A program made the position numbers and the translations under genes. The notes under the pieces were generated by a model, which saw only the letters and a list, made by a program, of their open reading frames with translations, was not told the DNA's origin and made no database searches. DNA of 48,245 nucleotides. Origin: Dehalococcoidia bacterium (lineage in GTDB: Bacteria > Chloroflexota > Dehalococcoidia > UBA2247 > RBG-13-53-26). Shown here in pieces: positions 8,172 through 43,655 of this stretch. The stretch spans positions 1-48,245 of the forward strand of contig JAFGCL010000066.1 in assembly GCA_016932645.1 (NCBI GenBank), in the 5' to 3' direction. Each line of letters opens with the position of its first letter. Positions within the stretch are counted from its first letter, which is position 1.

Positions 8172-9350
8172 GTGAGACTCGGCTATTACATCACACACTT
8201 CCCCTATGTGGGAGAGGGAACACCAAGCACGCATGATTATGCTTGCGGCGGAGCAGAGTGGGCTGCCTACCATCTGGCGGTCGAGATCGCGCAGAGAGGT
8301 CATGAAGTCAAGGTGTTCACGGCCTCCGCGGGTCATAAAGATGACATCGAATACCACCGTGGCGTGGCTGTGTATCGCTACGGCACCAGTTTCTCCGTCG
8401 AAAGCTCGAGCGTCTCTATGGGGATGCTTCGGAAGCCATCAGAGCACTCTCTGGATGTTGTCCACGCCCACTTCACAGTTCCGCCGGCCTCGTATGCGGC
8501 GTTGTGGCATGCCCGACGCAAGAAGACACCCCTGATTGTCACCTACCATAGTGAGCAGAGAGCAGGATACGGTAGCCTCGTTCGCAGAGTCGGGGCGATG
8601 GTCGACAATCTGCTCGTCAGGCACAGTCTGCTGCCTAACGCTACCTCCATCATCTCGCCATCTCAACACTATGTTGATGAATCGCCTTTCTTGAGGGAAC
8701 ACAAGCACAAAGTGGTGTCGATTCCGAACGGAGTGAACCTCGAGGATTTCGAGATACCTTATACCAAAGAGGAATGCAGGCAGAGACTGGGCCTCCCTGA
8801 AGATGCCAGGATAGTACTGTTCATGGGATCGCTATCACCTCAGAAGGCGCCGGATGTCCTGGTGAAGGCGTTACCTGCTGTCGTACAGAGTATTCCGAAT
8901 GTGATTCTGCTTGTCGTGGGAACAGGAGCAATGAGGCAGAAGCTTGAGCAGCTTGCCAGAGATCTGGACATATGCCGGTCGGTCACGTTTGCCGGACTGG
9001 CAGAGTACCGCTCTCGGTCACTATACTATAAGGCATCGGATGTCTTTGTCTTGCCCTCAATTGAAGAGACTTTTGGCATCGTGCTCCTGGAGGCTTCTGC
9101 GTCCTGTCTGCCCATGGTTGTCAGTGACTTGCCCACTTTCAGATGGATTATCAAGGACGGCTACAATGGTGTTGTGGTGAAGAAGGGAGATCAATCGGAT
9201 CTTGCCCGGGCATTGATTCGCCTGTTCAGTGATGACCAACTCAGAACGGGGCTGGGACAGAATGCTAGAGGACGAGTTGGGGACTACTCGTGGCCTGCAG
9301 TTGCCGAGGAGACTGAGAGACTCTATCTGGCTGTGCTGAAGGCATCGTGA
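8172..9350 (+). CDS. glycosyltransferase, GT-B fold (GT4-like)
   Basis: 392-aa ORF with a GTG start. The C-terminal donor-binding region LPSIEETFGIVLLEASASCLPMVVSD carries the E-x7-E type motif typical of GT4. Confidence 0.85.
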   Translation: MRLGYYITHFPYVGEGTPSTHDYACGGAEWAAYHLAVEIAQRGHEVKVFTASAGHKDDIEYHRGVAVYRYGTSFSVESSSVSMGMLRKPSEHSLDVVHAHFTVPPASYAALWHARRKKTPLIVTYHSEQRAGYGSLVRRVGAMVDNLLVRHSLLPNATSIISPSQHYVDESPFLREHKHKVVSIPNGVNLEDFEIPYTKEECRQRLGLPEDARIVLFMGSLSPQKAPDVLVKALPAVVQSIPNVILLVVGTGAMRQKLEQLARDLDICRSVTFAGLAEYRSRSLYYKASDVFVLPSIEETFGIVLLEASASCLPMVVSDLPTFRWIIKDGYNGVVVKKGDQSDLARALIRLFSDDQLRTGLGQNARGRVGDYSWPAVAEETERLYLAVLKAS

Positions 9351-9372: not shown

Positions 9373-10377
9373 ATGAGAATATGTCTGATAGGGGAGTACT
9401 CAGGCCATCTTGACGAGGGGATGAGGAAACTGTCATCCCAGCTGGCTGAGGAGATGTCCAGAGAGCATGAAATCAAGGCTCTGGACATTGGAGATGTCTA
9501 TCACAGGCAGTTCTGGAAGGAAATCAGAACCTTCTCGCCCGAGATAGTTCACTACATACATGGGCCCTCCATCGCGAGCCTGGTGACGATGAAAGCGATA
9601 TCCTTGTGCAACAGGAAGGCGAAGACCGTGGTGTCTGCCACCCATCCCGACTTGCCCCGGCCTGTTAGAGGCCTCATACGGCTGCTCAAGCCCGACTTGA
9701 TCTTGACCCAGTCACATGACATAGAGCAGATGTTCATCAAGCACGGTTGTACAACTACCTTTCTGCCCACCGGGGTGGACACGGGCAAGTTCAGGCCAGT
9801 GTCGGCAGCTGCGAAGCATGAGTTGAGGAAGAAGTACGGAATAGACGAAGATGCATTCATAGTGCTTCATGTCGGATCAGTAAGGAAGGAACGCAACGTC
9901 TTGCTGCTCGGTGACATTCAAGAGAGTGGCCATCAAGTCGTCCTCATCGGAAGCGGCTCCACCGGCATCGAACAGGACGTGCTGCTCTATCTCAAGAAGC
10001 GCGGCTGCGTCGTTCGGACGGACTATTTTGAGAACGTGGAGGAGATATACGCTCTCTCTGACTGCTATGTCTTCCCTACCCAGAAGCGAATAGCCAGCAT
10101 AGAATCCCCTCTTTCTGTGCTGGAAGCCATGGCGTGTAACCTGCCGGTAGTAGCGACCCCGTTCGGGGCTCTTCCCAGGCTCTTCCAGCCTGGTGATGGT
10201 CTGTTCTTTGCTGAGAGCAAGCAGGATATCATGGACTCACTGAACAGCATCAGGAGCGGTGCAATTGAGGTCAACACGAGACAGAAGGTTGTGCGGTACG
10301 ATTGGGTCAAGGTGGTTTCTAGGCTTGAAGGCATATACGCCGACATTTGCAGTGGCAGGCAACCGGGTGCCGCATGA
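9373..10377 (+). CDS. glycosyltransferase, GT-B fold (GT1/GT4-like)
   Basis: 334-aa ORF with C-terminal SPLSVLEAMACNLPVVATPFG and GAGG about 9 nt upstream of the ATG. The stop overlaps the next start (ATGA at 10374-10377). Confidence 0.8.
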   Translation: MRICLIGEYSGHLDEGMRKLSSQLAEEMSREHEIKALDIGDVYHRQFWKEIRTFSPEIVHYIHGPSIASLVTMKAISLCNRKAKTVVSATHPDLPRPVRGLIRLLKPDLILTQSHDIEQMFIKHGCTTTFLPTGVDTGKFRPVSAAAKHELRKKYGIDEDAFIVLHVGSVRKERNVLLLGDIQESGHQVVLIGSGSTGIEQDVLLYLKKRGCVVRTDYFENVEEIYALSDCYVFPTQKRIASIESPLSVLEAMACNLPVVATPFGALPRLFQPGDGLFFAESKQDIMDSLNSIRSGAIEVNTRQKVVRYDWVKVVSRLEGIYADICSGRQPGAA

Positions 10378-12697: not shown

Positions 12698-13867
12698 ATG
12701 CCGCAACAGAATCACCGACTGAGGATATGTGCTTGCTTTTTCCCGTTCCCTGCAGAGGGGTCTCATGTGCACGTGGTCAGTGTGGTTGGGATACTCCGCG
12801 AGATCAGTGATAGGATATGCGTGATAAGCGGCAGAATGCCGGAAGGCGTCTCCATTGGAGAAGGAGTTCACCCCAGGACTCTGAGAATCACCACACACCT
12901 CAGAGCCTTCAGTCGGCCGGCGTGGCTATCCGCATTGAAGTGGGCGGTGAGCTATGCAACCGGGCAGATTGAGATGTCCTGCCAGGTAGCGAGGATGTCG
13001 CGGGAGTTCGACGTCGTGGTTTTCTACGAAGGCGCCCATCACTATGTGTTATCGATCATCGTGGCGAAGGTCTTGAGAAAGAAGATCGTCAAGTACTCCA
13101 CAGGACTGATGGCATTGGAAGGTTCCTACTCCAGACTCTCTTTTGACTACTGGGCTGGTTTCATGTTCAGAGTCTCTGAGAGGATATCTCACGCCCTTTC
13201 GGACCGCATTGTCGTACCTACCGGAGCGGACCCCGGGCGGATTGGAATGGACAAATACACCGGGAAGATCTCCACTGCTATGTACATGTTCGTCGCCGAC
13301 TCCTTCAGAGAGAAGAGGGATTGGCACGCGAGAGACAACGTTGTCGGCTATGTTGGCCGTCTGGTGGCGATAAAAGGGGTCATACAACTGGCTCAAGCCA
13401 TACCATTGATACTGAAGGCCAAGGGGGATCTGAGGTTCCTGATAGTGGGCGACGGGGTTCTCATGGGTGATATGAAGAAGTGTCTTCAAGAAGCCGGTTG
13501 CCTGGACAGGGTGACTTTTGTCGGTTGGGTGCCGAATGAGTCGATACCAGACTATCTGAATGAAATGAAGTTCCACATTCTGCCTTCACCATTCGAAGCT
13601 CCCGGCGCCATCAACCTTGAGGCGATGGCATGTGGTACGATTGCGATTGCGAACGGGGTTGGGGGAATTCTTGATATTATCATCGACAATCAAACCGGGT
13701 TCCTTGTCGATGGCAACGAGCCGCGCACAATAGCAGAGAAAGTAATCGAGGTGTGGGACTCCCCCGACCTTGAAAGGATTCGACATGACGCGGCTGATTT
13801 CGTAAGGCGGAGCTTCTCCAAGCAGAGCGTGGTCAACAGTTGGAGGCAGGCGCTAGAGGATCTGTAG
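12698..13867 (+). CDS. glycosyltransferase, GT-B fold (GT4-like)
   Basis: 389-aa ORF with VGYVGRLVAIKG and the C-terminal PSPFEAPGAINLEAMACGTIAIAN typical of GT4 family members. Confidence 0.8.
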   Translation: MPQQNHRLRICACFFPFPAEGSHVHVVSVVGILREISDRICVISGRMPEGVSIGEGVHPRTLRITTHLRAFSRPAWLSALKWAVSYATGQIEMSCQVARMSREFDVVVFYEGAHHYVLSIIVAKVLRKKIVKYSTGLMALEGSYSRLSFDYWAGFMFRVSERISHALSDRIVVPTGADPGRIGMDKYTGKISTAMYMFVADSFREKRDWHARDNVVGYVGRLVAIKGVIQLAQAIPLILKAKGDLRFLIVGDGVLMGDMKKCLQEAGCLDRVTFVGWVPNESIPDYLNEMKFHILPSPFEAPGAINLEAMACGTIAIANGVGGILDIIIDNQTGFLVDGNEPRTIAEKVIEVWDSPDLERIRHDAADFVRRSFSKQSVVNSWRQALEDL

Positions 13868-15279: not shown

Positions 15280-15474
15280 ACCGTCTTCCGAGCGTCTCGA
15301 TCCTCAGGTGCCCGGAAGGTAAACGGCCGATTCCTGTGCATGCTGCTACCGGCGATGTCACCGCGGACAACGGACTATGTCCGTCAGATTCTGATAATGT
15401 GTGCTAATCGTACCAGATGCATCGCTGTGAAAGGCGGGTCAGGGTCATGCTCACGGAAGCAGAGCATTCTCACC

Positions 15475-15503
15475 TTGACAGGCACCATTCGCTATGCTAT
15501 AAA
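15475..15503 (+). promoter_or_regulatory. sigma70-type promoter (TTGACA-17 nt-TATAAA with TGc extended -10)
   Basis: TTGACA at 15475-15480, a 17-nt spacer, then TATAAA at 15498-15503 preceded by TGC. It lies about 27 nt upstream of the riboswitch aptamer. Confidence 0.55.
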
Positions 15504-15529
15504 TCCTCAGAACATATGGTTTGATCAAC

Positions 15530-15616
15530 GGGCGCATGGGGCAAACCCGCCGAAAGGCGGGGACGCAAAGCTACGAGTCTAACGCCGCGAAGGCCATGAC
15601 GGTTGAGCTGCCGCCT
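15530..15616 (+). promoter_or_regulatory. c-di-GMP-I (GEMM-I) riboswitch aptamer, copy 1
   Basis: GGGCGCAUGGGGCAAACCCGCCGAAAGGCGGGGACGCAAAGCUACGAGUCUAA... matches the remembered Vc2 GEMM-I core (GGGCAAACC, GAAA-capped hairpin, GGGACGCAAAGCC, CUAA receptor). P1 pairs GGGCG with CGCCU. A gapless 87-nt homologue (72/87 identical) lies at 39131-39217 on the minus strand. Confidence 0.8.
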
Positions 15617-15633
15617 TAGAGAGTCTATGTAAT

Positions 15634-15675
15634 GGATACTCTTTGGCCAGCGCCAGGGTGTATCCTATTTTTGTT
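15634..15675 (+). terminator. intrinsic terminator (riboswitch expression platform)
   Basis: GGAUACUCUUUGGC-CAGC-GCCAGGGUGUAUCC forms a hairpin by hand folding (14 positions, 1 mismatch, 2 G-U pairs). It is followed by UAUUUUUGUU, 25 nt before the GTG start at 15700. Confidence 0.6.
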
Positions 15676-15699
15676 GGAAGCAGCTGAACTGAGGCAGGA

Positions 15700-18261
15700 G
15701 TGAAGTTCGACAGAGCGAGCGTCAAGACCGGGAGAGGCAGGCTTGTGGCACTATTGACAGCCACTGCTTTGCTTATAACCATGATTCCTCTCTTGATGGC
15801 TCTCGTCGAAGACCATGATTCGGGTGACCAGTCAAATACGTCGCCACTGGTTCAGTTGACCCCGCATTTCCCGGTCGCTACAAACAGCCTGTTCTGCTCC
15901 ATCATGGCACCGGGATCAGACACGAACGAAGGCAGTCTGATCTGTGACTATGCCTGGTACAAGGATGGGGTGCTGCAGCCCCAGTTCACTGGCGATACTG
16001 TAGACGGTAGCTATACGGCCAAGGGGCAGACGTGGAGATGCATTGTCACTTTCAACAATGGTAGAGGCATATGCACAGGTTTCGATGAGGTTACCGTTGG
16101 CAACAGCCCGCCTACAGCCCCGGTGGCAGATGTGATCCCTGATATGGCATATGGCGGGGATGACCTCGTGTGCGCCATCAAGACCCCGAGCTTTGATGCG
16201 GACGGGGACGTCATAACCTATACGTATGCCTGGTACAAGGACGGCGTGCTGCAGCCCAATCTGACCGGCGACACTGTAGCCGCCAGCTACACGTCAAGGG
16301 GAGAGACTTGGAGATGCGCAGTCACTGCCAGCGATGCTGAAAGCGCTGTCGCAGGCAGCTTCGATGAGGTCAGCATACCCAGCGGAAACAATCCACCGAG
16401 CGCCCCGGTTGTTGCCATTTCCCCGGTACTCCCGACTTCCACGGACAGCCTGCTGTGCTCTCTGAAAGTAGAGAGCACAGACCTGGACGGGGACCCTGTG
16501 ACCTACACGTATGCCTGGTACAAGGACGGCGTTCTGCAGCCTCACTTGACTGGAAATACTGTCAAGGCCAGCTATACGGTCAGGGGAGAGACGTGGAAGT
16601 GCGTGGTCACCGTCAGCGATGGCCAGGGTGGCAGTGCTGGCGGCTTCTGTGAAGCCACCATCCACAACTGTCCTCCGTCGCCTCCACTGATTGCAATCTC
16701 CCCGGATGAGCCGCTCACGATAGACAACCTGGAGTGCTCCATCACGCTAGCCAGTTCAGATGCGGACGGGGATGCCATAAGCTACACCTATGCCTGGTAC
16801 AAAGACGGTATCCTGCAGCCTCAATTCACGGGCAGTTCGGTTGACTCGAGTTACACGTCCTTGTGGGAAACGTGGAAATGCGCCGTGACAGCCAGTGATG
16901 GTAGAGATAGCAGTGTTCGCACCGACGAAGTCAGCATCACCGGCGAGATGAAAGCGCTGTACGTGTGGTCCTGGAGTTGGCAGTTGTTCGACAAGGTGGC
17001 TGAAGGGCAGTACTTCCTTGATATCTGCAGCGAGGAAGGCATCAACACCGCCTTTGTCGCCGCGGGTGACAGCGATGTTCAGGATTTGATCCAGAACTCC
17101 CCGGCGAAGATCCGGAGATTCATTCAGGACGCGAACGCCAGTGGCGTCCGGGTCTACGCGCTGCTGGCCAGGATGGACTACGGGGTGGAGGCGGCATTGC
17201 AGCCCAGTGTGGAAGCCATACTGAAGTACAACCACGACAACCCTGACTGCAAGTTCGAGGGCATCCACTTCGACCTCGAGCCGCCCGGAGGCTCGTCGCT
17301 ATCCCAGCACGCGGCCTACCTGGCGGAATGCACCACCTTCTTCCAACATTTGAAGACGTGGTCCTATGATGGGGAGAATGTAGCCAGCCAGGATGTCGCC
17401 CTGGGCATGTTTGTCGACCCGAGGTGGAGCAGTTCTGCATGCGCGGCGAACTACAGCAGCCTGGTGAGGGGACTGGACTATATGGACATCGCGGCCTACC
17501 GTGCGCCTCCGGAGACCGGCATAGCCAGCGTACAGGGATGTGTTGATCTTACGGTGGCTGAGGGCAAGCCCTTTGACATTGCCCTGGAGACGGCGGAGTT
17601 CCCCTACAATAGCGATGGTGCTACCACCTACTACGAGGAGGGTAGGGCAGGGCTGGAGAACTGTATGTCGGTGATGAGGGAGTACTACAAGACCAACTAT
17701 GCGGATTATTGCCTGGGGTTCGCCATCCATCACTACGAGAACTCCATACAGGCATTGCATATCATCAAGTTAGTCCAGTGGCCGTCAGGAACATATGGCG
17801 TGGGGAGCAGTGTGTCGGCCACGGTGACGCTTCACCCGTCTGACTACTACTACTGGAGGGCGTACGGCGTGAAGCTGGAAGTGAGGGACAGTGCGGGCAC
17901 CATCTGGGTGATATCGAGGATCATCTGCATGCACTACTCCTCGAACACCAGGGAGGTGACACTGACGTGGACGGTCCCGTCGGCAGCGGCGAAGGGCAGT
18001 TGCGATGTGAGAGTAAGCCTCTGGGATGTGGACCTTCATGACGAAGGCCATTATTCCAAGCTATGGTACTCGGACTTCTCCTCAACGTACTATGGGGACT
18101 CTGCCGGCCAGAAGGCTGCACTTGAGGCGTATTCCATGGAGAGCCTCGCAGCCCTGACGTACCGACCGGCCGACCCGGCACAGGCCTTGACAGGCAAGAG
18201 AGACCCGTTCATCGAGCTGCAGAGCTCCGGCTGGAGTGAAGACCTGTTCAACGTTACCTAG
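15700..18261 (+). CDS. secreted/membrane-anchored repeat protein: 4 x ~93-aa Cys-pair/DxDGD repeats plus a ~440-aa C-terminal domain (paralogue of 35845..39057)
   Basis: 853-aa ORF with a GTG start and GAGG 5 nt upstream. A basic N-terminus is followed by the hydrophobic segment LVALLTATALLITMIPLLMAL. Four tandem units and a C-terminal region are clearly homologous to the 1070-aa protein (shared motifs GINT, FDLEP, DPRW, DSAGT-W, LTGKR). Confidence 0.9.
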   Translation: MKFDRASVKTGRGRLVALLTATALLITMIPLLMALVEDHDSGDQSNTSPLVQLTPHFPVATNSLFCSIMAPGSDTNEGSLICDYAWYKDGVLQPQFTGDTVDGSYTAKGQTWRCIVTFNNGRGICTGFDEVTVGNSPPTAPVADVIPDMAYGGDDLVCAIKTPSFDADGDVITYTYAWYKDGVLQPNLTGDTVAASYTSRGETWRCAVTASDAESAVAGSFDEVSIPSGNNPPSAPVVAISPVLPTSTDSLLCSLKVESTDLDGDPVTYTYAWYKDGVLQPHLTGNTVKASYTVRGETWKCVVTVSDGQGGSAGGFCEATIHNCPPSPPLIAISPDEPLTIDNLECSITLASSDADGDAISYTYAWYKDGILQPQFTGSSVDSSYTSLWETWKCAVTASDGRDSSVRTDEVSITGEMKALYVWSWSWQLFDKVAEGQYFLDICSEEGINTAFVAAGDSDVQDLIQNSPAKIRRFIQDANASGVRVYALLARMDYGVEAALQPSVEAILKYNHDNPDCKFEGIHFDLEPPGGSSLSQHAAYLAECTTFFQHLKTWSYDGENVASQDVALGMFVDPRWSSSACAANYSSLVRGLDYMDIAAYRAPPETGIASVQGCVDLTVAEGKPFDIALETAEFPYNSDGATTYYEEGRAGLENCMSVMREYYKTNYADYCLGFAIHHYENSIQALHIIKLVQWPSGTYGVGSSVSATVTLHPSDYYYWRAYGVKLEVRDSAGTIWVISRIICMHYSSNTREVTLTWTVPSAAAKGSCDVRVSLWDVDLHDEGHYSKLWYSDFSSTYYGDSAGQKAALEAYSMESLAALTYRPADPAQALTGKRDPFIELQSSGWSEDLFNVT
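15841..16947 (+). repeat. 4 tandem coding repeats (~280 bp / ~93 aa each)
   Basis: Repeat core L-x-C...(S)SD-x-DGD-x-(I/V)-(T/S)-YTYAWYKDG(V/I)LQP...TG-x-(T/S)V...SYT...(G/W)ETW(K/R)C-x-VT. The first unit is degenerate and lacks DxDGD. Confidence 0.9.
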
Positions 18262-18389: not shown

Positions 18390-19118
18390 ATGAGCAGGTT
18401 GGTCGTGACTACGAGCTGGGACGATGGCGGCAAAGAGGACCTCAGACTCAGTGAACTGCTGGCTGAGTACGGTATCAGGGGGACCTTCTACATTCCCAAG
18501 ACTCATCAGAAGGCTGAGCCTCTGCGGGAAGAAGAGATACTGGCCGTAGCGGAGAAACATGAGATCGGCGCCCATACTTTGGATCATGTTGACCTGACCG
18601 GCATTCCTGCGGAGCAGGCTCAGGCTGAGATTGCGGGCTCCAAGGCGTATTTGGAGGACATCCTGGGCAAGAGCGTCAGGATGTTCTGCTACCCCTATGG
18701 ACGATACAATGCCCGAACAAAGGAAATCGTGGCAAGCTGCGGATTCGCCGGAGCCAGGACTCTCAGGTACACCAAGCTGGGGACCGTAACTGACCCTTAT
18801 GAATTCGGTGTGACGCTTCACGCTTCAAACAGTTCACCTCGCACCACTCTCAGGATCTGGCGCGCTTATGGAACATCGCTCAGATCCCTGCTGGATTGGG
18901 AGAATCGGGCGAAGGCTCTCTTCCAACTGGCGCTGGCAGAAGGCGGTGTCTGGCACCTGTGGGGGCATTCCTGGGAGATCAACCGTGCGCATGAATGGGA
19001 CAAGCTGGAGAGGGTGCTGGACTGCGTCTCGAAGAGAGACGGGGTCCGCTACGCCACGAACTCCGAGGCCGTTGACATCTGCCTGGCCGAGACTGGGCAG
19101 GTTCCCCGCAGCCCCTGA
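18390..19118 (+). CDS. polysaccharide deacetylase (NodB homology domain, CE4-like)
   Basis: 242-aa ORF with TSWDDGG (Asp-Asp motif), GAHTLDH (H-x-x-x-H metal motif) and FCYPYGRYN. Confidence 0.85.
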   Translation: MSRLVVTTSWDDGGKEDLRLSELLAEYGIRGTFYIPKTHQKAEPLREEEILAVAEKHEIGAHTLDHVDLTGIPAEQAQAEIAGSKAYLEDILGKSVRMFCYPYGRYNARTKEIVASCGFAGARTLRYTKLGTVTDPYEFGVTLHASNSSPRTTLRIWRAYGTSLRSLLDWENRAKALFQLALAEGGVWHLWGHSWEINRAHEWDKLERVLDCVSKRDGVRYATNSEAVDICLAETGQVPRSP

Positions 19119-21377: not shown

Positions 21378-22829
21378 TTGAAGTGCATGTTGCTGAATCT
21401 ACCCAGCCCTCGTGGGCGCAACATATACAGGGGCTACGCCGGTGATTTCGGATTGGCAGGAACAATAGCAGACGAGACCTTGCTGCCAATCCACCTGGCA
21501 TATGGCGCTTCTGCTGCCAAGAGACAGGGTTGCGAGTACGATGTCGCAGACGCTCAGGTGCTGAGATACGGTTCTTCTCAAGCGGTGGATGTGGTGAGGA
21601 GAAGCACCCCCGATATTCTCGTGTCCTGGCTGGCGCTTCCCTCGCTCCATGATGATCTGGCGCTTCTGGACGAAATCAAGAGAGCGGTCCCTGGCGTCGT
21701 TGTGGTTGCTCTGGGGGCGGTATGCAATGTGATGCCAGAGGAGGTACTCCTCAAGAGCAATGTGGATATGGCGGTCTGCGGCTGGTATCCCCACTACAAT
21801 CTGATATCGCAGGCAATCCAGGTGCTGCGAAGCAGCGGACCGGGCCAGGCTGCATTTGACAAGATTGGTGGCGCCAGATACCTCAAACAGGGGCAGATGG
21901 TCCAGAGTCCCATTGAACCCTGTGAAGAGACCCTGGACGAGCTGGCATTGGACGTCTACCGCCAGCTCCCAATACAGAAGTATCTGAGAGATGTTCCGGA
22001 CATCAGGGGTTCGACAATCAAGTGCATTTCCATAGCCACCAGCACAGGTTGCCCGTATGCCTGCATGTATTGCCCCTATCCCATAGGGTATGGAAGGAAG
22101 GTAACTCACAAGTCCATCCCGCGCATACTTGATGAGTTAGAGTCCCTGAAGACCAACTTTGCTGTCACTGGGTTCTCTTTCAGAGACCAGCTCTTCACAC
22201 ACAACAAACAGAGGGTGGAAGACCTCTGCGATGAAATGGTCAGGCGAGACCTGAACGTCAAATGGCATGTTGAGGCACGTGCGGATGAGGTCACTGATGG
22301 ACTTCTGACGAAAATGAGACGGGCGGGCTGTTTCCGGATTCACTATGGCGTTGAAACGGGGTCGCCGGAAATGCTGCGGAAGACGGGGAAGCCGGGGTTG
22401 GAGATAGATATGGCAAAGAAGGCGTTCAAGATGACTAAGGAAATGGGTATTGCCACTACAGCACACATGATGCTGGGATTGCCGGGAGAGAACCAGGAGA
22501 CTCTGAAGATATCCCTTGATCTACTGTGCCAAATCAACCCGGATGTTGCCAGCCTGAATGTGACCACACCGTACCCGGGGACGAAGTTGTTTCGCATGGC
22601 AGACGAGAAAGGCTGGCTGTCAACCCGTGACTGGTCAAGATACACCAGCTTTGATGCTATCATGAGGACAGACGAGCTGACTACCGCTCAATTGTCGGAA
22701 GCCAGGAAGGTGATGAGGAGGAGATTCCGCAATTTCAAACTGCGGCACGACTCTGAGTATCGGAGGCTGTACTTGAAGGCCTTGCCGAAGGCTGTTCTTG
22801 GCCGTCTGGCGTCGCTCTTTCGGTCCTGA
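21378..22829 (+). CDS. radical SAM enzyme with N-terminal B12-binding-like domain
   Basis: CxxxCxxC cluster motif in TSTGCPYACMYCPYP, preceded by a ~200-aa Rossmann-like N-terminal domain as in class B radical SAM enzymes. The start is TTG 21378 or ATG 21387. Confidence 0.8.
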   Translation: MKCMLLNLPSPRGRNIYRGYAGDFGLAGTIADETLLPIHLAYGASAAKRQGCEYDVADAQVLRYGSSQAVDVVRRSTPDILVSWLALPSLHDDLALLDEIKRAVPGVVVVALGAVCNVMPEEVLLKSNVDMAVCGWYPHYNLISQAIQVLRSSGPGQAAFDKIGGARYLKQGQMVQSPIEPCEETLDELALDVYRQLPIQKYLRDVPDIRGSTIKCISIATSTGCPYACMYCPYPIGYGRKVTHKSIPRILDELESLKTNFAVTGFSFRDQLFTHNKQRVEDLCDEMVRRDLNVKWHVEARADEVTDGLLTKMRRAGCFRIHYGVETGSPEMLRKTGKPGLEIDMAKKAFKMTKEMGIATTAHMMLGLPGENQETLKISLDLLCQINPDVASLNVTTPYPGTKLFRMADEKGWLSTRDWSRYTSFDAIMRTDELTTAQLSEARKVMRRRFRNFKLRHDSEYRRLYLKALPKAVLGRLASLFRS

Positions 22830-22875: not shown

Positions 22876-24099
22876 ATGAAAACTAGAGGCCTTGGCAAAG
22901 CCCTGTATGCGGCGAGACTATATCCTCGTTGGAGGAAGTGCCTCGGCTACAAGCCGCTATTGCTCAAGCTTCTGGTAACCAGCCGGTGCAATTCCCGCTG
23001 CATGCACTGCAACATATGGAGACTCACCAAGGAAAGACCTCAGGTAGTGAAAGATGAGCTATCCACGCAGCAGTGGACGGGCTTGCTGGGAGAGCTCTCT
23101 GAGATGGGGACTGAGGCGGTGTTCATCTCCGGAGGTGAACCCCTGCTTCGCAGAGACACAGTGGAGATAGTGAGGTTTGCCAAGAAGAAAGGCATGCATG
23201 TCGAAATGGTGACCAATGGGACATTGGTCACGGAAGACCTGGCCAAGGATCTGGTGTTATCAGGGATGGACATCATCGACTTCTCCCTCGATGGCCCTTC
23301 GTCGAAGATCCACGCGGAATTCCGGGGGGTAGACGGGGCTTGGGAGAGAACAACGAAAGGAATAGAACTGCTGAGTCAGGCCAGGAAGAAACTCGGTGTT
23401 CAGAAGCCGGTCATTCAGGTCAGTTACCCGGTGTCGACCATAACCCATCAGCATATCGAACAGGTTATCGGCCTCAAGGCGAGCTTGGGCTATGATACTC
23501 TGCATTTCAATCCGATCATAGGCAAGACACCGGGGGCTCGTTCCATCTTCATGAGTGACGAAGATCTTCGCAACCTTGAGTCACGGTTGGATTCAATTAC
23601 CGTCGCCTTCCAGAATGCTGGCATGTCGAGTTCACCTGTTTGGAACCTGGTCAGGATGTGCCGGAATGTGGAAGCCGCAAAGGGGGGAAAGTACGCTGAG
23701 TCGTTCATCAGGAAGGTCCTCTGCTTCGCTCCGTGGGAAGAGGTGACCGTCGATCCTTTCGGAAACGTCTACCCGTGTCCCTATGCTTGTCCATTTCAGA
23801 ACCTGTCGGAAGACCTGGAGCACTGCTTCTGGGGGACGGGCGATTTCAAGATGGGGAATGTCAAGAGTAATCGATTCAGCGAAATATGGGACGGCGACAG
23901 CTATCGGCGATTCCGGAAGAACCTGCAGAAGGTGCCCTCGCTCCCATTCTGTGCTTGGTGCTGCGAGGCCACTCTCAGAGACGCTGTCTTGACGGGGCTC
24001 TTCAAGGACCGATCACTGCTGTTCAAGATTGCTCTCTCCCGTTTGCGACACCGATCTGGAAGATCAGAACGGACGGAATGGGAGTTCCTTTACAACTAG
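22876..24099 (+). CDS. radical SAM enzyme with C-terminal SPASM-like Cys-rich domain
   Basis: CxxxCxxC motif in TSRCNSRCMHCNIW. C-terminal cysteines lie in CFAPWEEVTVDPFGNVYPCPYACPF and FCAWCCE, typical of SPASM/twitch auxiliary cluster domains. Confidence 0.85.
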   Translation: MKTRGLGKALYAARLYPRWRKCLGYKPLLLKLLVTSRCNSRCMHCNIWRLTKERPQVVKDELSTQQWTGLLGELSEMGTEAVFISGGEPLLRRDTVEIVRFAKKKGMHVEMVTNGTLVTEDLAKDLVLSGMDIIDFSLDGPSSKIHAEFRGVDGAWERTTKGIELLSQARKKLGVQKPVIQVSYPVSTITHQHIEQVIGLKASLGYDTLHFNPIIGKTPGARSIFMSDEDLRNLESRLDSITVAFQNAGMSSSPVWNLVRMCRNVEAAKGGKYAESFIRKVLCFAPWEEVTVDPFGNVYPCPYACPFQNLSEDLEHCFWGTGDFKMGNVKSNRFSEIWDGDSYRRFRKNLQKVPSLPFCAWCCEATLRDAVLTGLFKDRSLLFKIALSRLRHRSGRSERTEWEFLYN

Positions 24100-25248: not shown

Positions 25249-26484
25249 CTAGTCTTTGCTCTCAGCCAGATCTCTCTCGACCTGGAGGTACTGGTCAACG
25301 ATGCCACTCCAATCGAATACCACAACGTCCTGCAGGTTATTCGACTCCATTCTTCTTCGGAGGTCCTCGTTTCGATGCAACTCCAGGATGGCTTGGGCAA
25401 TCTCATCAGGGTTGGTGTTCACGAGCAAGCCATTTCTCCCCTGTATCACAACATCTGGAATGCCTCCCACCTTGGTGGCCACGATCGGCTTGCCCAGAGC
25501 CATCGCTTCCAGGCACGCGAGTGCGAAGGCTTCTCCTCGTGAGGGCATTACCAGGACGTCCACGGAGTTGAGCAGTCTTCGATAGTCGTGTATCGGCAGG
25601 AAGCCGGAGAACGTGACATTCTCCTCTAACCCATACTGCTGCACCATTTTCCTGAGCAGGTGCTTCTTGGGAACGTCAAGTGCTATGTAGAGGTGTATGT
25701 TCGGGATCCTGCCCTTGAGAGTGGCCATAGCCGTGACCAGCAGGTCACCCCCCTTAACAAACTTGCTGCCTCCAGGGAAGAGCAATGTGAATTCACCCTT
25801 CACCTCGGATTTCTCTGAAGAGCCTCTTTGGATCTCTGCAATGTTGATACCGTTGCTGATGACCACTGACTTGCCTTCCAAGTTGATGCCCCGCTCCGCA
25901 TACTCGCGCAGCATCGAAGCACTCACTTCCGTCACCGCAGTTGCCTTTTCCAGAGCTTCTTTGAACTTCCTCTTTCTCCAAGCAGCCAGGGGAATCATGA
26001 GTGGATGCACCGGCACGACTCCTCCCAGATAGTGTTCGCCGTGAGGGGTGGTCAGCGTCGGAGTCTGCAAGTCACCGAGGCTGCAGACGAAGAGGACACC
26101 CTCTGACATATGGGAGTGAATGACATCGAATTCCTTGTCTGAGAGGAATTGCCTCACCTGGCGCCGAATCCTCTTCCAGTAGACCCGGGCAAGAGACTCC
26201 TGCAAATAGGCATAGAACAACAAGAGGGCCCGGTTATGCGGATCGCATTCCCTGGCTGATCTTGCCTTCGGAGCGACGATAGACTTGGCCAGCGCTGTTG
26301 GGTCATAGAGAGGGCCAATGTTGAATAGCTCGACGTTCTCAAGGGTGTCATAATAGTGGACAATCTCCTCGTTCAAGACAATGCTTACGCTGTGACCTTT
26401 GTCTCTCAGGTGCCGGGACAGTTCATAGACAACAGTTTCAGCTCCGCCCCACCCTTTGGATAGAACGACCTGGCATATTTTCAT
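25249..26484 (-). CDS. glycosyltransferase GT4-like (tandem paralogue A)
   Basis: 411 aa. N-terminal MKICQVVLSKGWGGAETVVYEL and C-terminal MPSRGEAFALACLEAMALGKPIVATKVGGIPD. Clear paralogue of the adjacent gene. The start overlaps the upstream stop (ATGA at 26481-26484). Confidence 0.85.
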   Translation of the reverse strand: MKICQVVLSKGWGGAETVVYELSRHLRDKGHSVSIVLNEEIVHYYDTLENVELFNIGPLYDPTALAKSIVAPKARSARECDPHNRALLLFYAYLQESLARVYWKRIRRQVRQFLSDKEFDVIHSHMSEGVLFVCSLGDLQTPTLTTPHGEHYLGGVVPVHPLMIPLAAWRKRKFKEALEKATAVTEVSASMLREYAERGINLEGKSVVISNGINIAEIQRGSSEKSEVKGEFTLLFPGGSKFVKGGDLLVTAMATLKGRIPNIHLYIALDVPKKHLLRKMVQQYGLEENVTFSGFLPIHDYRRLLNSVDVLVMPSRGEAFALACLEAMALGKPIVATKVGGIPDVVIQGRNGLLVNTNPDEIAQAILELHRNEDLRRRMESNNLQDVVVFDWSGIVDQYLQVERDLAESKD

Positions 26485-27722
26485 CCGCGCTGGCGCTCCA
26501 TTGACACCTCTCGGTAGACTCTCATGAACTCGTCAACGATGCGGCTCCAATCGTATTTCGTCACGTCCTGCAGGTTGTTCTGGCTCATCTCTGTTCTGAG
26601 GCCTTCGTCTCTATACAGACGCACAATGGCGCTGGCGATCTGATCAGGATCCGGTCTCACCAGGATGCCATTCCTGCCATCTCTGACTACCTCCGGAATG
26701 CCGCCCGCGCTCGAGGCGACTACCGGCTTGCCCAGAGCCATGGCCTCCAGGAACACTATCCCAAAAGCCTCATCCCTGGACGGCATGACCAACGCGTCTA
26801 CGGAGCTGAGGAGACGCCTATACTCGTCCTTATTGAGGAACCCCACAAAGCTGACGCTGTCGTCCAATCCCATGTCTGCTACCATTCTCCGGATTCGGTG
26901 GTCGTGGGGAACATCCCAGGCCACATAAAGGTGGAACTCCGGTATCTCTTTCCTCACCGCAGGCAGAGCCCTGACCACCAGGTCTCCGCCTTTGATGAAC
27001 TTTGCCCCGCCAGGGAAGAGCAGGTTGAATCTGCCTTTCAGCTTCAGTGCCGATCCCATGCTGCGCTGGATATCAGATAGATTCACCCCGTTGGGTATTA
27101 CCGCATATCGCCCCGCGAGTGAAGCCCCCTGTGCTTCCCATGCTGGCAACATGAAAGCGCTGGGCCCTATCACCTTGTCCATCTTCTGCAGCGCCTTCCG
27201 GAACTCCCTCGCCTTCCACTTTGCTATTGGACGCAGTAGTGGATGCACGGGTTCTGTGCCTCTCAGGTTGCCTTCGCCGGCAACCATGGCTATCGCCGCT
27301 ATTCTCAGTGTCTTGAGTTCATGAGCCATGCGGGACACGAGGGGAACCGAATCTTCGAGGATGGGGCTGACAATGTCCGTGTGGTCATTCGACAGCCATT
27401 GCACTACTTCGCGTCGAGTTTTCCTGAGGCACAGGCGGCGAGCGATCTCATCCAGGTAGGGAGAGGGCAGTGACAGTGCTCGCGACAGAAGGCTGCGTCC
27501 CCGACCGACCTTCAGGAGAAAAGAAAAGGCAGAGTCGGGTGGATACAATGCGCCGATGCTGAGCAGCCTGACACCCTCCAGATCAGAGTACTGCTCATAG
27601 GTCTCCCTGTTCAGCACTATGCTCACGCTTTCGCCCTTGGCACGAAGGTGGCGCGCCAGTTCGTAGACTGCCGTCTCCGCCCCTCCCCATTCACCTGAAA
27701 GGAGGACAAAGCAGATGTTCAT
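26481..27722 (-). CDS. glycosyltransferase GT4-like (tandem paralogue B)
   Basis: 413 aa. MNICFVLLSGEWGGAETAVYEL and MPSRDEAFGIVFLEAMALGKPVVASSAGGIPE. ATGA overlap with the upstream gene at 27719-27722. Confidence 0.85.
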   Translation of the reverse strand: MNICFVLLSGEWGGAETAVYELARHLRAKGESVSIVLNRETYEQYSDLEGVRLLSIGALYPPDSAFSFLLKVGRGRSLLSRALSLPSPYLDEIARRLCLRKTRREVVQWLSNDHTDIVSPILEDSVPLVSRMAHELKTLRIAAIAMVAGEGNLRGTEPVHPLLRPIAKWKAREFRKALQKMDKVIGPSAFMLPAWEAQGASLAGRYAVIPNGVNLSDIQRSMGSALKLKGRFNLLFPGGAKFIKGGDLVVRALPAVRKEIPEFHLYVAWDVPHDHRIRRMVADMGLDDSVSFVGFLNKDEYRRLLSSVDALVMPSRDEAFGIVFLEAMALGKPVVASSAGGIPEVVRDGRNGILVRPDPDQIASAIVRLYRDEGLRTEMSQNNLQDVTKYDWSRIVDEFMRVYREVSMERQRG

Positions 27723-29821: not shown

Positions 29822-29949
29822 GTTCCTCCTGACTTCCCATGGGTCATCTTGCCGGCACTCATGACGCATCCCATGTCCCGGAGGGGATGCCATGGCCAAT
29901 CATACACCCGCGCTGAAGTAGATGGCTGAAAAAGCTGATAGACTCATTG

Positions 29950-35844: not shown

Positions 35845-38800
35845 CTATGTCAGTGTGATGCCTCCCTGCCAATCGGTGGCCTGCAGCATGAAGAATGTGC
35901 TGCGCTTTCCTGTGAGAGTACCATTGGGACCAGTCGTCGTTGCTGCCAGTTCGTCCATCGTCATGGCCAGCAATTGGCTCTGATACCCGGAATAGTTGCT
36001 GTAGTAGAGGATGTCGTAGTAGCTTTCGTTGTACCATCCTACTGCCCACATGGTAAGACGGACAGTGGCAGCGCCAGCGGCGACACCTTCCGGAACAGTC
36101 AGGCTGATAGTACGGTTGGTGGTCTGACCGTCGACGAGGTCGATGATCTGGTTGACCTTCCATACGGTACCGGCAGAGTCCTTCAGTTCCATCTGGATGC
36201 CGAAGACCCGGTGCGAGTAGCGGTCGGTGCGGCGGCGCGTCTGGTAGTTAATGGTCATCGTGTCGCCAGGCGCAAACGTACCGCTCGGCGATGAAGTCAC
36301 CGAGTCGATGTTGAACCAGTACACGAACCCGCCGGCATCGAAGTAGGTGGTATACCCGACGAAGTTGTCCGGGTAGTGCGCATTGTAGTAGTCTGCGTAG
36401 TCCTGCATGGCCTGTTCATATCCTTCGCGGCCCAGATTGAATCGAGAACCGTATGGATCGGAGGCTTCATAGGTCTTGGGCAATTCGTCGCAGGACAGAG
36501 TGCATGTGAAGTACCGGCCCTCATTGATGACTACCGCCAGAGCGTTGGCAGTGTAGGCCAGCGAGTAGTCAATACCATCGGCGTAGCTGCCGCCACCCCA
36601 CCGGTAGTGTTCTATCTCTACCACATCAAGCTGAGAGACAACCTGTGCCCATGCGGTAGCGCAAACAGCGCCGCCCCATCGAGGGTCACAGAACATGGCA
36701 ACAGTCAACTCCTGGCTGTCTATCGTCTCTGTACCGTCAACCGTGAAACCTCTCATGGTCTGCATTGTGGCGTAGACGCCTTCAAGGAACACACGGTGCT
36801 GCTCCGTCGTTGAGCCGCTTGAAGGCTCCAGGTCGAACTGCAGGCCAGTGAATCTCGCTGTCGGGTTATCCTTGTTCCAGTTCAGAACGGCGTCGAAGAA
36901 CTCATGCCAGGTATGGCCATCTGTGTCGTCATCCCACCCGGTATGGTTGCTGTTCCAGCAGGCCCAGACCTGGATGCCGGCAGCATTGAACGCGGCTATC
37001 CCTGTTGCCACGCTGGATTGTTCGTCACTGAGCTTGGCAAACACGGTGGCATCAACATTGATCTCCACGGTGTTAATGCCGAAGTCCTGGCAGCCCTTGA
37101 TGAGGTGAGCCCTGTCGGAGGTGTTGGTGAGGTAGCGCCAGGCCACCCCGTATGTGAGCAGGGAGTTGACATAACCTGGGTTCCTGGGGCCGGAGGCTGA
37201 GGATGCAGTGGTAACCTGGTCGTAACTGCTAGCACTGCCGCCGGAACCGTCCCTGGCAGTAACGACGCAACGCCAAGTCTGCCCTTCTCCTGTGTAGCCT
37301 GCGTCCACGGTATCGCCGGTCAACTCAGACTGCAGGACGCTGTTCTTGTACCAGGCGTAGGTGTAGGTTATGGCGTCCCCATCTGCGTCCGAGCTGGGGG
37401 TTGTGATAGAGCACAGCAGGTTGTCTGCTTCAACCGGATCGTCCGGCGTAACGTCTACTGCCGGAGCGGTCGGTGAACTGTTGTGGATGGTGACCTCATC
37501 AAATCCCTCGGCGATGGCGCCTGTGCCGTCGCTCGCGGTGAGGACGCACTTCCAGGTCTCCCCTTTGGTGGTGTAGCTGGAGCTGACAGTATTGCCGGTC
37601 AAGCCGGTCTGGAGAACGCCGTTCTTGTACCAGGCGTAGGTGTAGGTTATGGTGTCTCCGTCTGCGTCTGAACTCGGCACGTTCGCAGAGCACACCAGGT
37701 TGCTAGTGGTAACTGGCAGATCCGGAGTGATATCCGCCACGGGAGCAGTGGGCGTGCTATTGTAGATGGTGACGTCATCGAAGCTACCGGCGCTGCCGCC
37801 TGCCCCGTCAGTGACGGTGACGATGCACTCCCACAGCTCTCCTTTGGTGGTGTAGCTGGCATCTACGGTGTTGCTGGTCAGATGAGTCTGCACAACGCCG
37901 TTCTTGTACCAGAGATACGTGTATGTCAAAGCATCCCCGTCTTCATCAGAGCTGGGGACCACGATAGAACACAACAGACTGTCGACGGTGGTCGGCAGGT
38001 CCGGAGAAATGGCAACCACTGGAGCAGTTGGAGGGTTGTTGCTGCCGGATATGGTGACCTCGTCGAAACTACCGGCGCTGCCGCCTGCGGCATCGGCAAC
38101 GGTGACGACGCACTTCCATGCTTCTCCTCTGGCTGTGTAGCCGGAGTCAACTGTGTTCCCGGTCAAGTTGGTCTGCAGGGCATCATCCTTGTACCAGGCA
38201 TACGTGTAAGTCAGGGAATCCCCGTCCGGATCTGAGCTGGGGACCACGATAGAGCACAGCAGGCTATCTGTGGTTGCCGGCTGGTCTGGAGTGATGTCCA
38301 CCACCGGAGCCGTGGGCGGTTCATTCTGGACTGTAACCTCATCGAAGCCGGCGCTGCTGTCTGTGCCATCACTGGCTGTGACGAGGCATTTCCAGGTCTG
38401 CCCCTTGGCTGTGTAGCCGGCGTCTACGGCACTGCCGACGAACTGGGGTTGCAGGACCCCATCTTTGTACCAGGCGAAGGTGTAGGCTATGTTGTCTCCA
38501 TCGGCATCTGAACTTGTAGACGCAATCGAGCCCACCAGGCCGTCTCCGGAAACCGGCAACTCCGGGGCGATATCTACGACAGGAGCTGTCGGCGGGCTGT
38601 TCTGTATCGTAACCTCATCTGACTGGGTGGCAGTCCTGTTGCGGCTGCCCCTGCTGACGACCTTGGTGGTGACAACGCACTTCCAGGTTTCCCCCTTGGC
38701 TGTGTAGCTGGCGTCGATCGTATTACCGGTCAACCCGGTCTGCAGAACGCCGTTCTTGTACCAGGCATAGGAGGCCGTGGTTCGGGTACGGGAAGTTAAG

Positions 38801-39057
38801 GTGTTGTTGATGGAGCATATCAAGTCGTCGGTAGAAACGGGCCAGTTTGGCGTTATGTCCACTGCCGAGACTGTGGTTGTTTCCTTTTGTGTTTTAGCTG
38901 ACACCGCGTCAGGACTGGACGAGTCGCCTCCGCTGTAGACGACAAGGCCTATCGTAAGCGGGAGCAGCATCGCAACGACAAGCCCGAGGGCCAGAAGCCC
39001 AAGGGGCCGCCTGCTCTTCCGCTGACCTTCCCTTCGTACATTCGCATTGTGTTTCAT
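35845..39057 (-). CDS. secreted/membrane-anchored repeat protein: 6 x ~93-aa Cys-pair/DxDGD repeats plus a ~450-aa C-terminal domain (paralogue of 15700..18261)
   Basis: 1070-aa ORF with GGGAGG 7 nt upstream of the ATG. A basic N-terminus is followed by LGLLALGLVVAMLLPLTIGLVV. Six tandem units are followed by a C-terminal domain homologous to the 853-aa protein. Confidence 0.92.
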   Translation of the reverse strand: MKHNANVRREGQRKSRRPLGLLALGLVVAMLLPLTIGLVVYSGGDSSSPDAVSAKTQKETTTVSAVDITPNWPVSTDDLICSINNTLTSRTRTTASYAWYKNGVLQTGLTGNTIDASYTAKGETWKCVVTTKVVSRGSRNRTATQSDEVTIQNSPPTAPVVDIAPELPVSGDGLVGSIASTSSDADGDNIAYTFAWYKDGVLQPQFVGSAVDAGYTAKGQTWKCLVTASDGTDSSAGFDEVTVQNEPPTAPVVDITPDQPATTDSLLCSIVVPSSDPDGDSLTYTYAWYKDDALQTNLTGNTVDSGYTARGEAWKCVVTVADAAGGSAGSFDEVTISGSNNPPTAPVVAISPDLPTTVDSLLCSIVVPSSDEDGDALTYTYLWYKNGVVQTHLTSNTVDASYTTKGELWECIVTVTDGAGGSAGSFDDVTIYNSTPTAPVADITPDLPVTTSNLVCSANVPSSDADGDTITYTYAWYKNGVLQTGLTGNTVSSSYTTKGETWKCVLTASDGTGAIAEGFDEVTIHNSSPTAPAVDVTPDDPVEADNLLCSITTPSSDADGDAITYTYAWYKNSVLQSELTGDTVDAGYTGEGQTWRCVVTARDGSGGSASSYDQVTTASSASGPRNPGYVNSLLTYGVAWRYLTNTSDRAHLIKGCQDFGINTVEINVDATVFAKLSDEQSSVATGIAAFNAAGIQVWACWNSNHTGWDDDTDGHTWHEFFDAVLNWNKDNPTARFTGLQFDLEPSSGSTTEQHRVFLEGVYATMQTMRGFTVDGTETIDSQELTVAMFCDPRWGGAVCATAWAQVVSQLDVVEIEHYRWGGGSYADGIDYSLAYTANALAVVINEGRYFTCTLSCDELPKTYEASDPYGSRFNLGREGYEQAMQDYADYYNAHYPDNFVGYTTYFDAGGFVYWFNIDSVTSSPSGTFAPGDTMTINYQTRRRTDRYSHRVFGIQMELKDSAGTVWKVNQIIDLVDGQTTNRTISLTVPEGVAAGAATVRLTMWAVGWYNESYYDILYYSNYSGYQSQLLAMTMDELAATTTGPNGTLTGKRSTFFMLQATDWQGGITLT
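37210..38874 (-). repeat. 6 tandem coding repeats (~280 bp / 92-95 aa each)
   Basis: Linker (P/T/S)PTAP occurs at residues 155, 247, 342, 435 and 529. Consensus: PPTAPVVDI-PD-P...LLCSI..PSSD-DGD..TYTYAWYK(N/D)GVLQ..LTGNTVD..YT.KGETWKCVVT..DG.GGSAGSFDEVTI. The first unit is degenerate. Confidence 0.92.
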
Positions 39058-39071
39058 GATCTGACCTCCCC

Positions 39072-39114
39072 AAAAAAGAACTACTCTTTGGCGTCAGCCG
39101 CCAGAGAGTAGTTC
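39072..39114 (-). terminator. strong intrinsic terminator (riboswitch expression platform, copy 2)
   Basis: The minus strand reads GAACUACUCUCUGGCG-GCUGA-CGCCAAAGAGUAGUUC (16-position stem, 1 mismatch) followed by UUUUUU, then the GGGAGG Shine-Dalgarno and the AUG. Confidence 0.7.
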
Positions 39115-39130
39115 TCCCTACTTCTCTTGT

Positions 39131-39217
39131 AGGCGGCAGCCCGACCATCATCGCCTCTTCGGCCTTAGACTCGTGGCTTTGCGCCCCCGTCTTTCGGCGG
39201 GTTAGCCCTTTTCGCCC
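39131..39217 (-). promoter_or_regulatory. c-di-GMP-I (GEMM-I) riboswitch aptamer, copy 2
   Basis: The minus strand reads GGGCGAAAAGGGCUAACCCGCCGAAAGACGGGGGCGCAAAGCCACGAGUCUAAGGCCGAAGAGGCGAUGAUGGUCGGGCUGCCGCCU. It is 87 nt long, aligns without gaps to copy 1 (72/87 identical), and the second helix shows pairing-preserving substitutions. Confidence 0.75.
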
Positions 39218-42102: not shown

Positions 42103-42104
42103 TC

Positions 42105-43640: not shown

Positions 43641-43655
43641 GTCTTGGCGAACTGA

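Follow-up and report, generated by a model that had tools for sequence, protein, structure and literature searches.

Locus and main features

We analyzed the leader of a gene for an 853-aa protein (hereafter the 15k leader) in a window that comprises the entire 48,245-nt contig of a Dehalococcoidia metagenome-assembled genome (MAG). A protein search found the 853-aa product to be identical to NCBI 'MAG: hypothetical protein JW753_03975 [Dehalococcoidia bacterium]'. An initial annotation of this DNA had read the leader as a cyclic di-GMP (c-di-GMP)-I riboswitch with a promoter, an aptamer, and an intrinsic terminator, followed by a ribosome-binding site (RBS) and a GTG start codon. Sequence inspection found all of the listed elements in place, and the reading is supported by the Rfam score, by the bases known to contact the ligand in the Vc2 aptamer of Vibrio cholerae, and by promoter, terminator, and RBS elements that are conserved or covary among related leaders. 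A second riboswitch, which had escaped that annotation, lies 23 kb away and precedes a gene for a 1070-aa protein (the 39k leader). The aptamer also precedes the gene at four orthologous loci on metagenome contigs, two of the 853-aa type (L010, 62.2 bits; L011, 63.1 bits) and two of the 1070-aa type (L012, 67.1 bits; L013, 74.6 bits), so that six leaders were available for comparison. The features at the two window leaders are as follows (ORF, open reading frame).

15475..15503, plus strand: sigma-70-type promoter, from the sequence; matched nowhere else in the window and kept in L010 and L011
15530..15616, plus strand: c-di-GMP-I (GEMM-I) aptamer, from cmscan, alignment with Vc2, RNAalifold, and folding with helix P1 forced
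15607..15651, plus strand: predicted antiterminator hairpin, from folding; the minimum-energy nascent fold in all six leaders
15634..15675, plus strand: intrinsic terminator with a 13-bp stem that contains one U.U mismatch (15634-15665), the loop CAGC, and the tail UAUUUUUGUU (15666-15675)
15691..15702, plus strand: RBS GAGG (15691-15694) and GTG start codon (15700), from the sequence and the ORF list
15700..18261, plus strand: putatively controlled gene, 853 aa, from translation, Pfam, AlphaFold2, and Foldseek
18390..19118, plus strand: polysaccharide deacetylase gene (PF01522; Pfam E 6e-23)
39131..39216, minus strand: second c-di-GMP-I aptamer (cmscan, 66.4 bits, E 1.3e-13)
39072..39137, minus strand: second expression platform, from the sequence and folding
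35845..39057, minus strand: second putatively controlled gene, 1070 aa, from BLASTP and Pfam

Transcription of the 15k leader is predicted to start near 15510 from a promoter in which the -35 hexamer TTGACA (15475-15480) and the extended -10 element TGcTATAAA (15495-15503) are separated by a 17-nt spacer. The pattern TTGACA-N16-18-TATAAW matched once on the two strands of the 48-kb window and in none of 100 shuffles. The near-consensus promoter of the initial annotation is also kept in two orthologous loci; across the three 15k-type leaders (window, L010, and L011), both hexamers and the TG are invariant while the spacer diverges in sequence and length, giving the form TTGACA-17/18-TGcTATAAA. 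A simple promoter scan reported nothing at either window leader, which in the case of the 15k leader was caused by its rule demanding a final T in the -10 hexamer. An ORF at 15340-15582 that overlaps the promoter and the aptamer was treated as spurious.

Identification of the aptamer

The initial annotation had proposed a covariance-model search as a check, and cmscan with Rfam 15 matched 15531-15616 on the plus strand with 63.6 bits (E 8e-13 for the whole window). The output gives only the best-scoring member of clan CL00126 at each site, which was RF03167 here, and the score lies above the gathering score of 59 for this clan member, whose full model (positions 1-80 of 80) is matched by both window aptamers. 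In gathering mode, one more clan match per site, which the output did not name, reached its own threshold; this is presumably RF01051, with a gathering score of 35.

The aptamer lies on the coding strand in the 5' leader, 84 nt upstream of the GTG, and the expression platform overlaps its 3' end. P1, which the initial annotation had drawn between 15530-15534 and 15612-15616, pairs GGCG (15531-15534) with CGCC (15612-15615) and has a G15530.U15616 wobble as its outermost pair. A GAAA-capped hairpin occupies 15546-15561, with closing pairs G15541-C15566 and C15542-G15565, and P3 extends over 15569-15609. The 15k aptamer contains ACGCAAAGC alongside this hairpin and UCUAA/AUGA receptor-like elements, and the core elements on which the initial annotation had relied, a GNRA-capped hairpin and a receptor region, are thereby both present. 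The GAAA loop and the UCUAA...AUGA elements are conserved in the leader alignment, their tertiary docking being predicted. When P1 was forced, folding yielded the three-helix architecture of the class.

Vc2 numbering was transferred by aligning Vc2 and the window to a common covariance model. The equivalents of Vc2 G20, C44, A47, G83, and C92 are G15540, C15564, A15567, G15602, and C15611, respectively, and all five are the same as in Vc2 in both window copies and in the four orthologues. Among these bases, C44 and G83 are the Vc2 partners of an inter-helical pair. A conserved inter-helical Watson-Crick pair has been described (PMC4744006), and the ligand is contacted in Vc2 by G20, A47, and C92 (PMC4744006, PMC5888326). 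The canonical contact bases are retained, and the window aptamers therefore carry the canonical c-di-GMP signature.

RNAalifold, computed independently of the Rfam model from eight sequences (the six leaders, another Dehalococcoidia sequence, and Vc2), gave a consensus of 25 pairs, nine of them with compensatory double changes, and recovered P1, the GAAA-capped hairpin, and P3. Judged by sequence and covariation, the 15k element is a genuine member of the c-di-GMP-I (GEMM-I) class, and its ligand is probably c-di-GMP.

The c-di-GMP-I-GGC label and the ligand

The best-scoring Rfam family for both window copies and the four orthologues is RF03167, named 'c-di-GMP-I-GGC' (62-75 bits; gathering score 59). 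Taken at face value, this label would speak for another ligand, either 3',3'-cyclic GMP-AMP (3',3'-cGAMP), as in the GEMM-Ib riboswitches of Geobacter, or the ligand of the 'c-di-GMP-I-GGC' variant class. 'GGC' presumably denotes the bases at positions 20, 47, and 92. The RF03167 consensus reads ACGC-G-AA where all six leaders read ACGC-A-AA, a column that cmscan left unmatched; the conserved G of RF03167 at the A47 equivalent is thus an A in all six sequences, and membership in the GGC variant was ruled out for this reason. Membership in the cGAMP type (GEMM-Ib) was ruled out by the G at position 20, which is found in all eight aligned sequences. The Geobacter GEMM-Ib riboswitches (PDB 4YAZ; PMC7288161) have the same fold and belong to the same Rfam clan as the window aptamers, but they carry an A at the Vc2 G20 equivalent, where the six sequences here have G. 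Re-tuning by single bases is known in this fold: the G20A mutant of Vc2 binds cGAMP, and G20A/C92U shifts recognition to cyclic di-AMP (PMC7288161).

The natural Vc2 aptamer (L073, 5061-5147, minus strand), a proven c-di-GMP binder, is also scored best by RF03167 (69.5 bits) despite its A47. Among genomes, 58 loci share the aptamer core of the window, nearly all of them in Bacillota, plus one in Anaerolineales and one in another Dehalococcoidia. Of the 16 loci that were scanned, from Firmicutes and Chloroflexota, some were assigned to RF01051 (69-94 bits) and the others to RF03167 (63-76 bits); for Firmicute aptamers sharing this core the assignment was arbitrary, several ordinary ones with A at the A47 position being top-scored by RF03167. 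Because Vc2 and ordinary Firmicute aptamers receive RF03167 too, the label is uninformative on the ligand, and by this sequence comparison it is not diagnostic. For annotation, a best-of-clan assignment to 'c-di-GMP-I-GGC' in Rfam 15 must not be taken as 'variant ligand', the variant being over-called.

A different ligand is also favored by the gene content of the window. Pfam scans of the ~39 longest window ORFs and a motif scan found no GGDEF, EAL, HD-GYP, or PilZ domain, in agreement with the initial annotation, which had seen no GGDEF, EAL, or HD-GYP gene; a single contig does not decide the question of c-di-GMP synthesis in this organism. All copies have G at position 20 and not the A of the cGAMP sensors, and we regard a ligand other than c-di-GMP as improbable.

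Terminator, antiterminator, and RBS

The intrinsic terminator that had been annotated at 15634-15675 was borne out by its fold energy and by complementary stems in the orthologous and paralogous leaders. Its stem pairs GGAUAC-U-CUUUGGC with GCCAGGG-U-GUAUCC across the CAGC loop, and the predicted stability is -19.1 kcal/mol (z = -3.8), which none of 200 shuffles equaled. The terminator stems vary by lineage yet remain complementary (CUAC/GUAG, CUGC/GCAG, and UCAC/GUGA). In the 39k leader, a terminator at 39115-39077 (-25.5 kcal/mol, z = -4.75) has a U6 tract behind it that continues into a GGAGG RBS (39069-39065), with the ATG at 39057. Both terminators are predicted to be active. A simple terminator scan reported nothing at either leader, since an internal stem mismatch in each was barred by the rule of the scanner. 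Downstream of the 15k terminator, the annotated GAGG and GTG were confirmed, the GTG opening the 853-aa ORF, and the orthologues have GAGG-N5-GTG at the equivalent place. The RBS is not sequestered by any conserved structure. A pairing of the aptamer 3' end with GCAGCU (15680-15685), taken from the full-length fold, was dropped because it is absent in the 39k-type leaders.

The predicted antiterminator at 15607-15651 is built from the aptamer 3' end and the terminator 5' half. GGC-CAGC (15645-15651) is the pairing partner of GCUG (15607-15610) and of GCC (15613-15615), which is part of the P1 3' strand, AGAG (15618-15621) pairs with CUCU (15639-15642) in the inner part, and an apical stem lies within 15623-15637. 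By its predicted pairing this hairpin is mutually exclusive both with P1 and with the terminator. Its stability is -18.3 kcal/mol (z = -3.6), again equaled by none of 200 shuffles. In the 39k leader, the antiterminator at 39137-39097 pairs GCCGCC, which includes the P1 3' strand, with GGCGGC (-22.9 kcal/mol, z = -3.3).

To represent the nascent RNA before synthesis of the terminator 3' half, the six leaders were folded after being cut inside the terminator loop. In all six truncated leaders, the minimum-energy fold pairs the aptamer 3' end with GGC(G).CAGC, the upper part of the terminator 5' half. The aptamer bases engaged are GCUG, from the last P3 pairs, together with GCC or CGCC, from the P1 3' strand, and they lie on either side of the C92 equivalent; AGAG in the linker finds its partner in CUCU. 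Forcing P1 costs 1.2-6.4 kcal/mol relative to this antiterminator state, a margin that nanomolar ligand binding could override by our own estimate. The P1-forced folds of all six leaders contain both the aptamer and the terminator. The antiterminator complementarity exceeds that of shuffled sequences in four of the six (0 to 8 of 500 shuffles reach it). Because the antiterminator that competes with P1 is the minimum-energy nascent fold in all six leaders, the riboswitch is predicted to be a transcriptional OFF switch.

The opposite sign would have c-di-GMP, through the same aptamer, prevent termination or open the RBS and so induce the surface protein. Many c-di-GMP-I riboswitches before adhesin, pilus, or matrix genes are ON switches, and the inner AGAG/CUCU hairpin, which forms with P1 closed and overlaps the terminator 5' half, could serve as an antiterminator of the ligand-bound state. 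However, the terminator stem begins only after the aptamer has ended, so that the two have no strand in common, and just one conserved alternative pairing draws on aptamer nucleotides; it is in competition with P1 and the terminator together, which is the arrangement of an OFF switch. Moreover, the terminator is predicted in all six leaders with P1 forced, and, as noted above, no conserved structure sequesters the RBS. We consider an ON switch unlikely.

The leader could also be a relic, with a recognizable aptamer that no longer controls expression and a terminator acting as a constitutive attenuator. There is a precedent in Bc1 of Bacillus thuringiensis, which binds c-di-GMP yet leaves its downstream genes unregulated (PMC11218506), and the terminator is always present in the full-length equilibrium fold of our leaders. 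Two paralogous copies and four orthologues nevertheless keep the aptamer, the contact bases, the antiterminator complementarity, and the terminator, while spacer and loop sequences diverge around them and, in one leader, 19 nt have been duplicated. The retention of these elements amid diverging spacers and loops therefore indicates purifying selection on the whole switch, and a dead element appears highly improbable.

The second leader and further leaders in Chloroflexota

For the 39k leader, a promoter scan found no sigma-70 consensus. Upstream of it, at about 39380-39620 on the minus strand, lies a cluster of about seven CTGTGA motifs, which includes a palindrome at about 39418-39434 (TGTGA-gatgacc-TCACA) that resembles CRP/FNR-type sites but has a 7-nt spacer. 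Judging from these motifs, the cluster could be a transcription-factor binding array for the promoter of the second leader. About 80 nt upstream of the second aptamer, at 39297-39307 (minus strand) and the next ~12 nt, GAGCTGCCGCC followed by CGAGAGGAGA repeats the aptamer 3' end and the start of the linker. Judging by its sequence, this repeat may be what is left of an aptamer that once stood in tandem; at this site no further aptamer was detectable at E <= 10.

In L013, a tandem duplication of ~19 nt (GCATGGTCTCCTCAGGGGT, twice; ~875-915) lies between the aptamer and the terminator, and the antiterminator and terminator pairings are kept. A pattern scan of metagenomes for further leaders returned three loci only, one being L013 and another L065, so that the set of platforms stayed at six. 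A comparison of the 853-aa protein with the genome collection gave distant repeat-domain matches only, and none of the GTDB representatives contained an orthologue.

In another Dehalococcoidia MAG, a GT2 glycosyltransferase gene is preceded by a GEMM-I aptamer with a TTGACA-17-TATCAT promoter and a terminator-like hairpin (L065, 7024-7112, minus strand; L075, 9230-9380, plus strand), and tandem aptamers occur in an Anaerolineales MAG (L037). These loci show members of the class appearing repeatedly beside glycan genes in Chloroflexota.

The putatively controlled proteins

The 853-aa protein begins with a signal anchor or signal peptide, recognizable from a basic and then hydrophobic N-terminus, followed by four PKD/Ig-like repeats of ~92 aa (aa ~47-414), each with YAWYKDG(V/I)LQP; the Pfam matches of these repeats to PKD_4 and Ig_2 are sub-threshold. 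The initial annotation had called it a giant repeat protein. 'Giant' is overstated for 853 aa, and 'repeat protein' holds for the four PKD/Ig-like repeats but not for aa 415-853 (439 aa; 16942-18258, plus strand), a non-repeat, enzyme-like region comprising a TIM barrel and a beta-sandwich.

This C-terminal region matched no Pfam family, including GH18, and no PDB sequence. An exhaustive HMMER search found 145 relatives of the domain among 1.8 billion representative proteins. When ten short relatives were compared with Pfam, no glycoside-hydrolase family was found, nine having no match and one a sub-threshold match to ExbD. The alignment of the relatives conserves FDGIxxDxEP, MxYRD, and IGxET. 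In the barrel of the 853-aa protein the first motif reads FEGIHFDLEP (FxGIxxDxEP) with D525 and E527, so that D-x-E is kept and the first two Asp are absent from what would be DxxDxDxE, the catalytic motif that ends strand 4 in GH18 barrels; the motif is nonetheless reminiscent of GH18. AlphaFold2, supplied with the alignment of the relatives, predicted a (beta/alpha)8 barrel and a beta-sandwich (pLDDT 93.6, pTM 0.91), and the best PDB matches of this model in Foldseek were GH18 chitinases/endo-beta-N-acetylglucosaminidases and the barrels of GH3, GH84, and GH99, with a target-normalized TM score of about 0.5 for the GH18 and GH99 matches. The modeled domain resembles a glycoside-hydrolase fold and would represent a small family that has no Pfam model. 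On the basis of this model, the protein is a putative surface-anchored enzyme that cleaves or remodels glycan and would be made at low c-di-GMP.

The 1070-aa protein, a paralogue, matches the 853-aa protein at 40% identity across 830 aa (E = 0 by BLASTP) and has a signal anchor, more PKD-like repeats (PKD_4, E 1.2e-10), and the same C-terminal domain (35848-37176, minus strand). By their N-termini, both products would be anchored in the membrane or secreted. A third paralogue, P0004, is found in the same MAG. No riboswitch was found at the loci of three distant relatives of the C-terminal domain (L014, L078, and L079); the association with a riboswitch is therefore lineage-specific and not a property of the protein family. 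One of these relatives, P0121 (L078), lies amid tightly packed small ORFs with a phage-like look.

Genomic neighborhood

No terminator-like site was found in the 128-nt gap between the 853-aa gene and the polysaccharide deacetylase gene, and the same gene order is seen in L010 and L011; the deacetylase gene is possibly co-transcribed with the 853-aa gene. Both putatively controlled genes lie in or at the edge of a surface-polysaccharide biosynthesis cluster (~8170-35620), which, besides the deacetylase gene, holds several methyltransferase genes and the following features.

8172-9350, 9373-10377, 12698-13867, 25249-26484, and 26481-27722: five GT4 glycosyltransferases (Pfam)
21378-22829 and 22876-24099: B12/radical-SAM enzyme and SPASM radical-SAM enzyme
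28760-29899: GNAT protein
29950-31479: Wzx-type flippase
32710-33528: DUF1616 protein

Elsewhere in the window, a trehalose gene set on the minus strand (41287-44873) encodes a trehalose-phosphatase, a GT20 trehalose-6-phosphate synthase, and a TreT-like synthase, and is followed by genes for a mechanosensitive-channel/DUF5752 protein and a Na+/H+ exchanger with a CBS domain. This composition suggests an osmoadaptation block that is unrelated to the riboswitch.

Proposed mechanism

We propose that the 15k leader is a c-di-GMP-I transcriptional OFF switch with a twin copy and with glycan-active surface proteins as its targets, and we assign this reading as a whole a probability of roughly two in three (0.68). 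Without ligand, the aptamer 3' end would pair with the terminator 5' half to form the antiterminator, and RNA polymerase would read on into the 853-aa gene and probably into the deacetylase gene too. Binding of c-di-GMP would lock P1 and the ligand pocket and thereby block the base of the antiterminator, whereupon the terminator hairpin would form and transcription would end before the RBS. The twin riboswitch (39216-39072, minus strand), which has the same architecture, would govern the 1070-aa paralogue in the same manner. High c-di-GMP would then mean less of the putative glycan-cleaving or glycan-remodeling surface enzyme. The sequence and folding analyses establish to which family the aptamer belongs, that it is conserved, and that stable terminator and antiterminator folds exist; which ligand binds, the sign of regulation, whether the deacetylase gene is co-transcribed, and what enzymatic role the products have are the parts of this scheme that we infer.

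Several points weigh against this proposal. The OFF sign is argued from thermodynamic folding of truncated transcripts, and in the full-length fold the terminator is the equilibrium structure in either state. In L011 and L013 the antiterminator is no better than about 10% of shuffles, and the inner part of the antiterminator is still able to form with P1 closed. The six leaders represent only two paralogue groups from closely related organisms, which limits covariation in the platform. With regard to the targets, c-di-GMP more often turns matrix and adhesin genes ON, the likeness to hydrolases is at the level of the fold only and comes without a Pfam match, and the scans described above revealed no c-di-GMP-making or -degrading enzyme on the contig. 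Finally, Bc1, a c-di-GMP-I riboswitch with clear terminators, showed no response to c-di-GMP in vitro or in vivo (PMC11218506), and architecture alone can therefore mislead.

Comparison with known riboswitches

The window aptamers share with Vc2, a member of the same clan, the three-helix fold, the GAAA tetraloop, and the UCUAA/AUGA-type receptor, and they have the same best Rfam model (69.5 bits for Vc2 versus 63.6-66.4 bits). They differ from Vc2 in that sequence identity outside the core is about 60% and the apical loop of P3 is different; position 18 is G in the 15k copy and A in Vc2 and the 39k copy. The window copies also have a clear intrinsic terminator and an antiterminator downstream of the aptamer, and they come from a Dehalococcoidia (Chloroflexota) MAG, whereas Vc2 belongs to a gammaproteobacterium. 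Crystal structures of Vc2 are 3IRW and 3MXH.

Cd1, located upstream of the flagellar operon of Clostridioides difficile, is a terminator-based c-di-GMP-I OFF switch. As in the Firmicute OFF switches (Cd1 and Bc1), the aptamer of the window leaders is followed by a rho-independent terminator, and the ligand is predicted to favor termination. The Firmicute switches control flagellar or other genes, whereas the genes in the window encode PKD-repeat, hydrolase-like surface proteins. Bc1 of the Bacillus cereus group has a dual terminator (PMC11218506), whereas the window leaders have a single terminator and an antiterminator that invades P1.

Within the library searched, no paper was found that connects Dehalococcoidia with c-di-GMP riboswitches. 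As a class these riboswitches are thoroughly characterized, and routine scanning with Rfam is enough to detect the 15k example; what is new is confined to the taxon (Dehalococcoidia), the occurrence as twins, and targets that are hydrolase-like and unannotated.

Biological implications

The proposed OFF switch would place two paralogous surface proteins of an uncultured Dehalococcoidia bacterium, and probably also a polysaccharide deacetylase, under direct second-messenger control, and it makes a testable prediction of sign, namely that expression is off at high c-di-GMP. It also provides a handle on the function of an unannotated family of hydrolase-like domains. A more specific possibility, which we offer tentatively and consider rather doubtful, is that the twin riboswitches define a pair of c-di-GMP-repressed surface enzymes, laid out as PKD repeats, a TIM barrel with a D-x-E motif, and a beta-sandwich, which belong to a hitherto undescribed family of glycoside-hydrolase-like fold and trim or release the polysaccharide made by the cluster. 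If this were true, the two loci would constitute an RNA-controlled module for matrix remodeling or dispersal in Dehalococcoidia. The arrangement hints that c-di-GMP may govern remodeling of the envelope and exopolysaccharide in this lineage.

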